Below are positions 1,188-3,872 of a stretch of DNA of 64,000 bases, one piece after another (position 1 is the first letter of the stretch; each line of letters opens with the position of its first letter). The translations under genes and the position numbers were made by a program. The notes under the pieces were generated by a model that searched no databases, was not told the DNA's origin, and saw nothing but the letters and a program-made list of their open reading frames with translations. The stretch lies in the NCBI GenBank assembly GCA_021780355.1, contig JAJXYX010000024.1, forward strand, positions 25,597 to 89,596, read 5' to 3'. The DNA comes from a bacterium (GTDB taxonomy: Bacteria > Chlamydiota > Chlamydiia > Chlamydiales > SM23-39).

Positions 1188-3872
1188 ATGAGCTCCATCT
1201 CACAATCTTCTTCAAAATCAACAACCCCCATTTTTCTTCTGAAAAAAAAGGATTCTCCTAAAAAACAAGAGCGGATCAAAAGGAGCGATTCTCATGGAAT
1301 AAAAGAAGGGGGAGGAAAAAGAGATTCCGGCGATCGAACCGGGTCTTTTTTTAAGATGAAAAGTGTCGTTGCAAACCGATATTCACATATCATGACAGAA
1401 GGAGAAAGGCTCGCTTTTCAAACGTCTTTCAACTACTCTCCCAGAATAAATCCCTTAGACATCGACGCGATTGCAAAACAAATTGAAACTTATTTAGGAG
1501 AAGATTTTCCTCCTCTGCTTTCTCAGATTCTAGGACAAATTTCTTATAATCAGTATGCCTTCATCTCGTCGAATAGCCATATTCTTGCCGCAGGCTTAGC
1601 AAAAGAAGCTCTATTAAAACCCTTTCTTTTAGGCATTGCTCGTTTAACAGCTCCCGGAAGCTTTCTGTCTTTAGTTCGTTCAAGACGCCTTATCGAGGCA
1701 GGCATTCGAATCATAGCCCACCCAAGCACCCAACCTCTTATCCATTCAAAAGAAATCCAGCAAGAAATTGACCATATTCTCTGCGCAAGTGCCATAAATT
1801 TAAAAAGTCCCAAATTTCAAGAACTCATCTATCAAGCAAAAGCAGCTTTTGTCTTACATGAAAAAAAGCAAAAATCTTCCAAAGAACTCGCAAACGAGGG
1901 ATTAAGCTATCTATCTCTTTTGATTCGCGACTCGGCCGATATAGAAAATTTCAAAAAAATCCAACGTTTATATCAACACGATCATTTTGCCCAGGAGAAA
2001 GCTTTTTTATTTTCCGTAAATGATTTCTTTTTAAGAAAAAAATATTCCCTGCGTATCAATGATCTGGAACAAGAATCGCTGATCCATAAATGTTTAAATA
2101 TTTTTCTTTCCGACCAAGGAGAAGAATTGGTTAAGCTGGAGGAAATCAATCAAATCGCCCAAAAAATTCTAGAGATCGATCTTTCTGAACTCATTCATGC
2201 CAATCCTGAGATAGAAGATCTAGCCCGATGGACAAAGATCCTATTAAACGCCCCCTCAAATCGCGTGAAAAGAGAAGAGAGCTCTTTTGAATTAGCTGAC
2301 AAGGGACTTATGATTTTCACTGAGTCTCTTCTCAATCCTCAAGATCTAAAAACTTTGAAAGAGATCGAATGCGAACACCAAAACTCCCCACTTGCCAAAC
2401 AAATCGCTTTTCTTTTGTCAACGCGCTTTTTCCTCTTAAAAAGAAAACGAATCGAGTTCGATCTCTTACAACAAGAATCTCTTATCCAGCTAAGCTTAAA
2501 AATTCTCATGTCTTTTGAAAAAGAACAATTACTCGACTCGGTAGAAATCAAAAAAATGACAAAGGAAATCTTCGAGCTTGATTTCACTCAATATAAACAC
2601 CCAGAAACGGCAAAATTGCTGCTGAGAGCTAAAATACAAATCAACAGCTCCTTGATATCTCTACAGGAACTACAATTTCTCCTTTTTTGGATTCAATCCG
2701 AACTCCCCAAAATAGATAACATCTCTCATTTAGTTGCAGGAACGAGAGAGTGGGATCCCGAAGGAGAACTTTATCAATTCGCTTTATGGCGAACTCTCGA
2801 TCTGGCCGCCGAACCAAACACAGAAACCGACGCCCTCTCTCAGCTTTTATCTTTTATCCTCTATTGGAGAGAAGCCCCGGCAAATCAAGATCTTTTAAAA
2901 AAGCCAAACTGGATCTTGCTTTGGCGGACATTTATAGACACTTTGGAAAGGCAAAATGAAGTGCGCCCCTGTCTAAATTCCGATCTTTTTCAAAGGATCA
3001 AACAATCGGGCCTGCCCAACAAAGAAATCCCTTTGCCCGAAATTGGCAATCCTGTCTTCAATCTAAGCAAATCTATCCAGGCGATTCCAGAAAAACCCCT
3101 TGATCTGTGGAACAAGAAAACCATCATCAAAGATTTGAGAGACAGCCTGATCTTCCATATTTTAAAAACTAGACAGTCCATCTCGACGAAAGACTTGGTT
3201 TTGTCTTCAAAGGGGCAAGCCCTTCTCTTCCAAGCAGAAAGTTTCAATAAAATTACCCAATTTCTCGTAGGGCAGATCTTAGCTAGCCAGTCCGAAGTTG
3301 AAATGAAACATATCATCCATATAATATGCCTTTTACAACTTGAACTTCTCAAATACTCTGCATTCGAAGCGGCCCTTGCCGTGCACGCAGCAATTGAGCA
3401 AGCTTCCGTTATACGGCTTAAATTCCTCTTTTCCAAAACAGAATCTTTTTTCGAGCTATTTGAAGATGCTAGAGCTCTTTGCTTTCAGCAAAAAAACGCG
3501 ATTGAACTCAGAAATCTCCAATCAGAAGATCCAAAGAGCTTAGAAGCTTTTTGCATCATAAGAAAAGACTTGGAATTTCTAAGAGTAAACTCATCTCCAT
3601 TTACAAAAGATGGAAAAATCGACCCTAACGAATTGCATCTCTTTGGAAAACTTTTCAATCATTTCGCGACGCACAAACAAGAGGCTTTATATTTTTGGAC
3701 AATGACTATGCAAATAGCCCCTCACTCTTTTATCCTAAAGGCTATTGAATCTCAATCTGGTCAAATTACCAGCGAGCAAGACGATGCTTGGTGGAGCCGC
3801 TCTGGAATCATCCATCCTGAAGAATCAAATCTTTACTGGGGAACAGAAAGGCTCGACGCCGGAAAGAAGTAA
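1188..3872 (+). CDS. Large hypothetical protein (894 aa) with an internal ~110-aa tandem duplication and a C-terminal RasGEF/CDC25-homology-like region; effector candidate
   Basis: Long uninterrupted ORF that looks AT-richer than its neighbours. Residues ~680-870 read like the RasGEF consensus: FNKITQFLVGQILAS.., LKYSAFEAALAVHAAIEQASVIRL, KNAIELRNL, EAFCIIRKDLEFLRVNS, DGKIDPNELHLFGKLFNHFATHKQ. The N-terminus is Ser/Lys-rich and looks disordered. Confidence 0.6.
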   Translation: MSSISQSSSKSTTPIFLLKKKDSPKKQERIKRSDSHGIKEGGGKRDSGDRTGSFFKMKSVVANRYSHIMTEGERLAFQTSFNYSPRINPLDIDAIAKQIETYLGEDFPPLLSQILGQISYNQYAFISSNSHILAAGLAKEALLKPFLLGIARLTAPGSFLSLVRSRRLIEAGIRIIAHPSTQPLIHSKEIQQEIDHILCASAINLKSPKFQELIYQAKAAFVLHEKKQKSSKELANEGLSYLSLLIRDSADIENFKKIQRLYQHDHFAQEKAFLFSVNDFFLRKKYSLRINDLEQESLIHKCLNIFLSDQGEELVKLEEINQIAQKILEIDLSELIHANPEIEDLARWTKILLNAPSNRVKREESSFELADKGLMIFTESLLNPQDLKTLKEIECEHQNSPLAKQIAFLLSTRFFLLKRKRIEFDLLQQESLIQLSLKILMSFEKEQLLDSVEIKKMTKEIFELDFTQYKHPETAKLLLRAKIQINSSLISLQELQFLLFWIQSELPKIDNISHLVAGTREWDPEGELYQFALWRTLDLAAEPNTETDALSQLLSFILYWREAPANQDLLKKPNWILLWRTFIDTLERQNEVRPCLNSDLFQRIKQSGLPNKEIPLPEIGNPVFNLSKSIQAIPEKPLDLWNKKTIIKDLRDSLIFHILKTRQSISTKDLVLSSKGQALLFQAESFNKITQFLVGQILASQSEVEMKHIIHIICLLQLELLKYSAFEAALAVHAAIEQASVIRLKFLFSKTESFFELFEDARALCFQQKNAIELRNLQSEDPKSLEAFCIIRKDLEFLRVNSSPFTKDGKIDPNELHLFGKLFNHFATHKQEALYFWTMTMQIAPHSFILKAIESQSGQITSEQDDAWWSRSGIIHPEESNLYWGTERLDAGKK

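Follow-up and report, generated by a model that had tools for sequence, protein, structure and literature searches.

In a 64,000-nucleotide stretch of chlamydial DNA (contig JAJXYX010000024.1 of assembly GCA_021780355.1, positions 25,597 to 89,596; hereafter the window), an open reading frame (ORF) with an ATG start at 1188..3872 (+) encodes a protein of 894 residues, P0001, whose C-terminal half is a genuine homologue of RasGEF domains, the Cdc25-type guanine nucleotide exchange factor (GEF) domains of Ras-family GTPases, with a likeness far beyond chance. We consider it probable, at roughly 60%, that P0001 is an injected type III effector which activates a host Ras-family GTPase through a REM-Cdc25 module.

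The homology is carried by profile comparisons. The Pfam RasGEF profile (PF00617) matches residues 677-806 over profile positions 37-170 of 181, with 32.7 bits and an E-value of 8.8e-8, compared to a curated gathering cut-off of 23.1 bits, and 18 of the 19 family members match this profile individually, the best at E 1.3e-16. When 19 family sequences are aligned over their C-terminal module (alignment A3) and the resulting profile is compared to the PDB, the RasGRF1 Cdc25 domain is found at E 1.3e-15, followed by RalGPS1 (1.4e-10), Epac2 (2.5e-9), yeast Cdc25 (2.7e-8), and RasGRP1 (2.2e-7), with SOS1/2 only at ~0.01. The profile-profile comparison of the family with canonical RasGEFs, four weak database hits including a RasGEF of Physarum polycephalum, gives an hhalign probability of 99.0% and an E-value of 2.3e-18 over 187 columns. 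Both kinds of profile check, which the preliminary description of this DNA had proposed for its RasGEF claim, are thus significant. A single-sequence phmmer search of P0001 against the PDB gave no match, so that the solved relatives are revealed by profiles only, and no NCBIfam model matches the protein. The RasGEF call on P0001 was already precomputed, standard annotation pipelines flag the domain, and one family member is named "RasGEF domain-containing protein" at NCBI.

Five RasGEF motif blocks had been pointed out previously in P0001, and all of them are located inside the stretch that HMMER aligns to RasGEFs, in columns that coincide with the RasGRF1 alignment. In this alignment with the RasGRF1 Cdc25 domain, FNKITQFLVGQIL of P0001 is opposite FNHVSNFIASEII, LKYSAFEAALAVHAAIEQASVIRL is opposite LHNYNAVLEITSSINRSAIFRL, KNAIELR is opposite FKNLRE, LEAFCIIRKDLEFLRVN is opposite CVPYLGMYLTDLVFIEEG, and DGKIDPNELHLFGKLF is opposite DGLVNFSKMRMISHII. 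The most conserved stretches of the family are the first Cdc25 helix (DLRDSLIFHILKT), the structurally conserved regions SCR1 (ESFNKITQFLVGQIL) and SCR2 (ICLLQLELLKYSAFEAALAVHAAIE and ASVIRLK), and LRNLQS. Two further family-conserved motifs, GTREWDP and EAPANQD, fall in the REM-like domain described below.

From A3, AlphaFold2 predicts a structure for residues 480-894 with a mean predicted local distance difference test score (pLDDT) of 87.1 and a predicted template modelling score (pTM) of 0.86. Foldseek finds 85 matches to this model in the PDB at E <= 0.001, and all 50 listed matches are RasGEFs, including RasGRP2-Rap1B, Rlf, a Ral GEF, SOS1/2, RasGRP4, RasGRF1, yeast Cdc25, Epac2, and RasGRP1. 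The template modelling (TM) scores of these 50 range from 0.5 to 0.68, and the identity to solved RasGEFs is 12-16%. Structures that comprise both REM and Cdc25 domains (RasGRP2, Rlf, SOS1, Cdc25, and Epac2) align over ~410 of the 415 model residues, with TM scores of 0.55-0.68, whereas for RasGRF1, whose entry has the Cdc25 domain only, the alignment extends over 248 columns. The RasGEF module is therefore probably larger than previously described: a Cdc25 domain is indeed found in the region of residues ~680-870, where it had been placed, but the module appears to start near residue 490 with a preceding REM-like domain. This REM-like domain, N-terminal to the Cdc25 domain, is assigned from the predicted fold, and the linker between the two (~608-640) is poorly predicted in the model.

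In SOS, the helical hairpin consists of two helices that pry open the nucleotide site of the GTPase. In the model of P0001, residues 788-801 and 813-840 form a pair of long antiparallel helices in the place where the RasGRF1 helical hairpin aligns (YLGMYLTDLVFIEEG...VNFSKMRMISHIIREI), suggesting that P0001 has the hairpin protrusion. The comparison of an AlphaFold model with known structures, which had been put forward as a decisive check, thus returns RasGEFs only among the 50 listed matches and a model in which the hairpin helices are present.

As noted previously, the N-terminus is disordered and rich in Ser and Lys: the pLDDT is ~32 over residues 1-84, Ser makes up 32% and Lys 20% of the first 25 residues, and the first acidic residue occurs at position 22. 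No signal peptide and no transmembrane segment is found in P0001, and its N-terminal region has no hydrophobic segment (maximum Kyte-Doolittle hydropathy over 19 residues, KD19, of 1.48). Judged from composition and disorder, this N-terminus is compatible with a signal for the type III secretion system (T3SS). Residues 85-480 are predicted to form 25 helices, with a pLDDT mostly between 70 and 93 and a pTM of 0.46. Foldseek gives no match for this region at E <= 0.001, and we rejected a homology to ARM/HEAT-like proteins (V-ATPase subunit H, importin-alpha) because the likeness is generic, with TM scores below 0.2. The region includes an internal duplication, residues 226-345 being 34% identical to residues 361-477 (BLASTP, E 4e-17).

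The disordered N-termini of several relatives share a short basic motif, [KR][KR]-x-S-G-E-[KR], which is found seven times in P0007, twice in P0003, and once in P0006. The motif scan shows one such site in P0001, KRDSGDR at residues 44-50 (nucleotides 1317-1337). The motif looks like a basophilic-kinase or docking site.

The gene, its domains, and the adjoining repeat elements are listed in Table 1.

Table 1. Features of the P0001 gene and its flanks, in window coordinates; residue numbers refer to P0001.
Feature	Position	Strand	Evidence
Palindromic-repeat element (half copy), intergenic between enolase and the RasGEF gene	1014..1091	.	repeat families D8, I2, I6
RasGEF-domain protein coding sequence (P0001)	1188..3872	+	ORF listing; 63%-identical orthologue aligning full length
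Disordered Ser/Lys-rich N-terminus, residues 1-84; candidate type III secretion signal region	1188..1439	+	pLDDT ~32; composition
Predicted helical repeat (solenoid-like) region, family-specific, residues 85-480	1440..2627	+	AlphaFold2; conserved across the family
Internal repeat copy 1, residues 226-345	1863..2222	+	BLASTP against copy 2
Internal repeat copy 2, residues 361-477	2268..2618	+	BLASTP against copy 1
Probable REM-like helical domain, residues ~490-607	2655..3008	+	model helices 492-606; alignment with REM+Cdc25 structures; support at the level of the fold
Cdc25-homology (RasGEF) catalytic domain, residues ~641-885	3108..3842	+	PF00617; PDB profile matches; hhalign 99%; Foldseek
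Putative helical hairpin, residues 788-840	3549..3707	+	DSSP helices 309-322 and 334-361 of the model; RasGRF1 alignment
Palindromic element between convergent genes	3904..4059	.	repeat families D5, I8, I10; nested inverted repeat visible

The limits of the gene agree exactly with the ORF listing and with what had been claimed for it. The N-terminus MSSIS is common to P0001, P0002, P0004, and P0010, which supports the ATG start at 1188, and a protein identical to P0001 is called on 10 metagenome contigs. The gene was also said to be richer in AT than its neighbors, which is true but to a modest degree: its GC content is 39.4% (37.7% at third codon positions, GC3), compared to 48.3% (GC3 46.5%) for enolase, 45.7% (GC3 44.5%) for metN, and 44.2% for the whole window.

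We searched 1.84 billion representative proteins exhaustively with HMMER, using a query profile of P0001 and its 63%-identical relative. This search gave 24 proteins at E <= 0.001, of which 20 fall into a separate family at E <= 1e-17, and the other four, the best of which is the P. polycephalum RasGEF, are weak matches at ~1e-4; no strong match was found outside the chlamydial family, the next being at E ~1e-4. Word-indexed homologue searches yielded only 2 and 3 proteins. The family comprises ~20 clusters at 50% identity, and all members with a traceable source come from "Chlamydiales/Parachlamydiales bacterium" metagenome-assembled genomes (MAGs) or from metagenomes. A scan of a genome collection with a narrower alignment found two MAG loci only, in a set of species representatives that does not include the genome of the window.

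In three genomes, the RasGEF gene is directly downstream of enolase. At these loci, enolase retains 83-84% identity, while the RasGEF proteins next to it are down to 63% and 36%, indicating that the RasGEF gene evolves fast. Further family members are found at loci other than the enolase-adjacent one. Duplications within the family are seen on the JGI 3300050821 contig and at locus L008: in another chlamydial genome, tandem paralogues of 668 and 786 residues lie beside ClpP, SHMT, and a CT398-like gene, and in P0003 (1441 residues) two complete units of the family are fused head to tail. No second family copy is present within the window. Separately, an unrelated, bacterial-looking contig (Logan SRR29398968, locus L009) has three genes in tandem whose products contain Pfam RasGEF domains, at 6001-7626, 7626-10292, and 10368-12359 (541, 888, and 663 residues), with LemA, peptidase M48, and GH3 genes as neighbors, which indicates that RasGEF-domain expansions exist in another lineage.

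The window is chlamydial, and the host bacterium is an uncultured, Parachlamydiaceae-like organism. A fusion of topoisomerase I with SWIB (TopA-SWIB) and a long GreA (723 residues) are encoded, and the gene order AhpC, metallo-beta-lactamase, PrmA, GroEL, NamZ/DUF1343, PutA, PcrA matches pc0024-pc0034 of Protochlamydia amoebophila (PMC5451489 Data Set S1). The preliminary description was therefore right to take the organism for an intracellular bacterium. The T3SS is described as present in all known Chlamydiae (PMC6925127); no T3SS gene was noticed in the window, where no search was aimed at one.

P0001 is consistent with being an effector because of its chlamydial origin, its disordered Ser-rich N-terminus, its fast divergence relative to enolase, and the published annotations of RasGEF effectors. 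Other effector-like features are the GC content below that of the flanking housekeeping genes and the tandem and fused duplications in the family. In the mechanism that we propose, the disordered N-terminus would direct export through the chlamydial T3SS, and the helical-repeat region would position or regulate the protein within the host cell. The REM-Cdc25 module would then bind a Ras-, Rap-, or Ral-type GTPase of the host; insertion of the hairpin (residues 788-840) would open switch I, release GDP, and allow GTP to be reloaded, and the host GTPase would thereby be switched on independently of host signals. The likely use would be in host entry or early niche formation, because in amoebae, actin-driven motility, macropinocytosis, and phagocytosis are under the control of Ras GTPases; a role of Ras GTPases in actin-driven motility and endocytosis of amoebae is cited in PMC4103550.

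Several observations weigh against this reading. The REM sequence profile PF00618 (RasGEF_N) has no match in P0001 even at E <= 10. In P0001, LEAFCII stands at the place of the P-x-[IV]-P-[FY]-x-G block (SCR3) of canonical RasGEFs, and this Pro-rich block is absent throughout the 19-member family alignment. At the hairpin column that we take to be Glu942 of SOS, the IEEG motif in RasGRF1, P0001 has V800 and its closest relative has Arg; at the column presumably equivalent to SOS Leu938, P0001 has E796. Both SOS columns were mapped through the RasGRF1 alignment. The Asn of the L-x-N-[FY] block in SCR2 is Ala in P0001. Because the SCR3 block, the hairpin Glu, and the SCR2 Asn are all lost, exchange activity is not assured. 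In addition, three small metatranscriptomes from the same mine-drainage study as the source metagenomes contain no contig matching window positions 1-9300, a result which is uninformative rather than negative.

These substitutions would also fit a secreted pseudo-GEF, which binds a host Ras-family GTPase without exchange and sequesters, relocalises, or scaffolds it, with V800 (or Arg) in place of the hairpin Glu, E796 at the Leu938 column, LEAFCII in place of PxVPFxG, and Ala in place of the SCR2 Asn all pointing in this direction. Nevertheless, we consider a pseudo-GEF unlikely. The SOS Glu942 column is Glu or Asp in 13 of the 19 family members, and RalGPS1, which is deposited as a Ral exchange factor, has Ser at this column in the same alignment, showing that the hairpin Glu is not universal among solved RasGEFs. 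The strongest conservation, moreover, is in SCR1, SCR2, and the first Cdc25 helix, as expected for maintained GTPase binding. The SCR3 motif and the hairpin Glu are conserved features and not criteria for Pfam membership. Taken from the alignment, catalytic competence of P0001 is plausible.

Another alternative is that P0001 stays in the bacterium and acts as a regulator on a small Ras-like GTPase of the chlamydia itself. The preliminary description stated that bacteria have no Ras, which is too absolute in general, since Ras-related small GTPases are reported in some intracellular bacteria such as Legionella longbeachae (PMC2824747), and the secretion of P0001 is deduced from its features. 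We regard an intrabacterial role as improbable, however, given that a search of the 64-kb window, which was the whole extent of that search, found no Ras-like GTPase gene (G1, G3, and G4 motifs, DTAGQE-like), that the long disordered Ser/Lys-rich N-terminus, low GC, and fast divergence are typical of effectors, and that for pc1363, a RasGEF-domain protein of P. amoebophila, secretion is predicted and expression is early. Finally, a spurious similarity, for example of a helical protein of biased composition with an unrelated function, might be suspected from the empty phmmer and NCBIfam results and the 12-16% identity to solved RasGEFs, but it is effectively refuted by the Pfam score above cut-off, the profile match to the PDB at 1e-15, the hhalign probability of 99%, and a confident AlphaFold2 model with RasGEFs as its only neighbors among the 50 listed.

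Returning to P0001 as an injected activator of host Ras-family GTPases, we can tentatively go one step further, although this extended picture is more doubtful than not. The family may consist of anciently acquired, active REM-Cdc25 GEFs that gained a new helical-repeat targeting domain, are pre-packed in elementary bodies, and are injected at contact, switching on amoebal Ras or Rap and thereby triggering macropinocytic or phagocytic uptake, while the N-terminal K/R-R-x-S-G-E-R motifs might be regulatory host-kinase or docking sites. If true, the family would provide the first Cdc25-type GEF from bacteria whose host target is defined.

The sequences derive from mine-drainage metagenomes, and palindromic repeats lie on both sides of the RasGEF gene. 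The window contains at least two families of intergenic palindromic repeats resembling repetitive extragenic palindromes or miniature inverted-repeat transposable elements (REP/MITE-like), located at gene ends, with arms of up to 75 nucleotides that are 96% complementary. Type A copies occur at 1014-1091, 39049-39187, and 41837-41891, type B copies at 3904-4059, 9233-9401, and 28612-28693, and related copies at 15135-15207, 21267-21324, and 24702-24842. The type B element that follows the RasGEF gene is plausibly a bidirectional terminator. In the source metagenome, the repeats fall at breaks of the assembly graph and at local spikes in depth. In one run of this metagenome, the unitig 1032-6382 (5351 nucleotides), which includes both AT-rich genes, has a depth of 33 compared to ~24 in its flanks, and alternative joined sequences are found at 1026-1028 and 6356-6366. 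We do not claim a mobile islet at 1032-6382, as the breaks coincide with short high-copy sequences, one of which (1014-1091) is the palindromic repeat also found elsewhere; the difference in depth may equally reflect strain variation, a second context, or a coverage bias.

The second AT-rich gene, 4058..6274 (-), is convergent with the RasGEF gene and encodes a protein of 738 residues (33.7% GC, GC3 26%). A class I glutamine amidotransferase / peptidase C26 domain (Pfam 6e-18; nearest solved relative Lin1909, 1.6e-5) makes up the C-terminal 180 residues of this protein, whereas no match was obtained for its N-terminal 500 residues. The gene is a lineage-specific insertion, since the 63%-identical relative lacks it at the syntenic locus and has metN 330 nucleotides after the RasGEF gene. 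Its product is possibly another effector.

Some other genes of the window are worth mentioning. A 1765-residue RHS-repeat protein (53563..58860 (-), Pfam 6e-53) adjoins a YjbH-family outer-membrane/exopolysaccharide protein (58926..61091 (-)), and the two may represent a toxin-delivery locus in a chlamydia. The 665-residue protein encoded at 13099..15096 (-) has a glycoside hydrolase family 64 (beta-1,3-glucanase) domain (4e-22), an enzyme that seems unexpected for an obligate intracellular bacterium. The region 19052..21229 (+) encodes a Bro-N domain protein (295 residues) followed by a PP2C-type protein phosphatase (407 residues). Inside the GroEL-type chaperonin gene 21334..23028 (-), a tandem 9-nucleotide repeat, CCATGCCTC, extends over 21354-21425 with six overlapping 27-nucleotide copies; in the coding direction, the repeat is expected to specify a Gly-Gly-Met-rich tail, as is usual for GroEL, and the overlapping ORF 21298..21924 (+) is probably spurious.

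Mimicry of eukaryotic exchange factors is a common means by which pathogens and symbionts of amoebae steer the small GTPases of their hosts, and the mimics that act on Arf (RalF) and on Rab (DrrA) have been studied in detail. For Ras, Rap, or Ral, bacterial exchange factors of the Cdc25 type have so far been annotated only (LegG2, pc1363), and we know of none that has been characterised or tested biochemically. What is added here is a defined family restricted to environmental Chlamydiae, the recognition of what is probably a complete REM-Cdc25 module, the family-specific N-terminal architecture, and the deviations in the catalytic motifs. Residues 480-894 provide a concrete construct for exchange assays, and the family offers a candidate link from infection by chlamydiae to the uptake and motility that Ras controls in amoebae.

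Compared to the eukaryotic REM-Cdc25 factors (RasGRF1, RasGRP2, RalGDS/Rlf, RalGPS1, Epac2, yeast Cdc25, and SOS1), P0001 has the same predicted fold and probably the same architecture, including a putative hairpin, and its family shares with them SCR1, SCR2, and the N-x-x-x-L-R, D-L-x-F, and G-x-[IV]-[ND] motifs. A C-terminal S-x-x-I-H-P of the family resembles what we take to be the end of the SOS Cdc25 domain, S-x-E-I-E-P. The differences are the low identity (12-16%), a REM domain undetectable by sequence, the absence of PxVPFxG, and the replacement of the hairpin Glu by Val. None of the DH-PH, EF hand, C1, cNMP, or RA domains was detected in P0001, which has a disordered N-terminus and family-specific helical repeats instead, and which is encoded by a bacterium.

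P0001 is not a new kind of system, as putative effectors with RasGEF domains are already known in Legionella and Protochlamydia. In Legionella pneumophila, LegG2 (lpg0276), described as "Ras guanine nucleotide exchange", is listed among the Dot/Icm substrates (PMC2824747; PMC8442362; PMC2475511), and PathFams names a Legionella effector family with PF00617 (PMC8442362). Likened by Pfam domain and description, LegG2 and P0001 are both bacterial proteins with a eukaryote-like Ras exchange-factor domain from amoeba-associated intracellular organisms. They differ in phylum and in their route, which is the Dot/Icm type IV system for LegG2 and would be chlamydial type III secretion for P0001. RalF (a Sec7-type Arf GEF) and DrrA/SidM (a Rab1 GEF) follow the same strategy of an injected activator of a host small GTPase (PMC2824747, PMC8442362), but they have other folds, act on other GTPase families, and are biochemically characterised.

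No chlamydial RasGEF is mentioned in the main text of the literature searched, the only chlamydial mention being in a supplementary table. There, a Pfam RasGEF domain, a positive EffectiveT3 prediction, and detection in the elementary-body proteome are given for P. amoebophila pc1363, with log2 expression values (reads per kilobase per million, RPKM) of ~9.4 at 2 h post infection, ~3.5 at 48 h, ~3.7-4.3 at 96 h, and 7.5-9.4 in the extracellular stage (PMC5451489 Data Set S1). The neighbors of pc1363 are ackA and atoC, whereas that of the P0001 gene is enolase. Likened to P0001 by its Pfam domain and not by sequence, pc1363 is the most relevant functional precedent for this protein.

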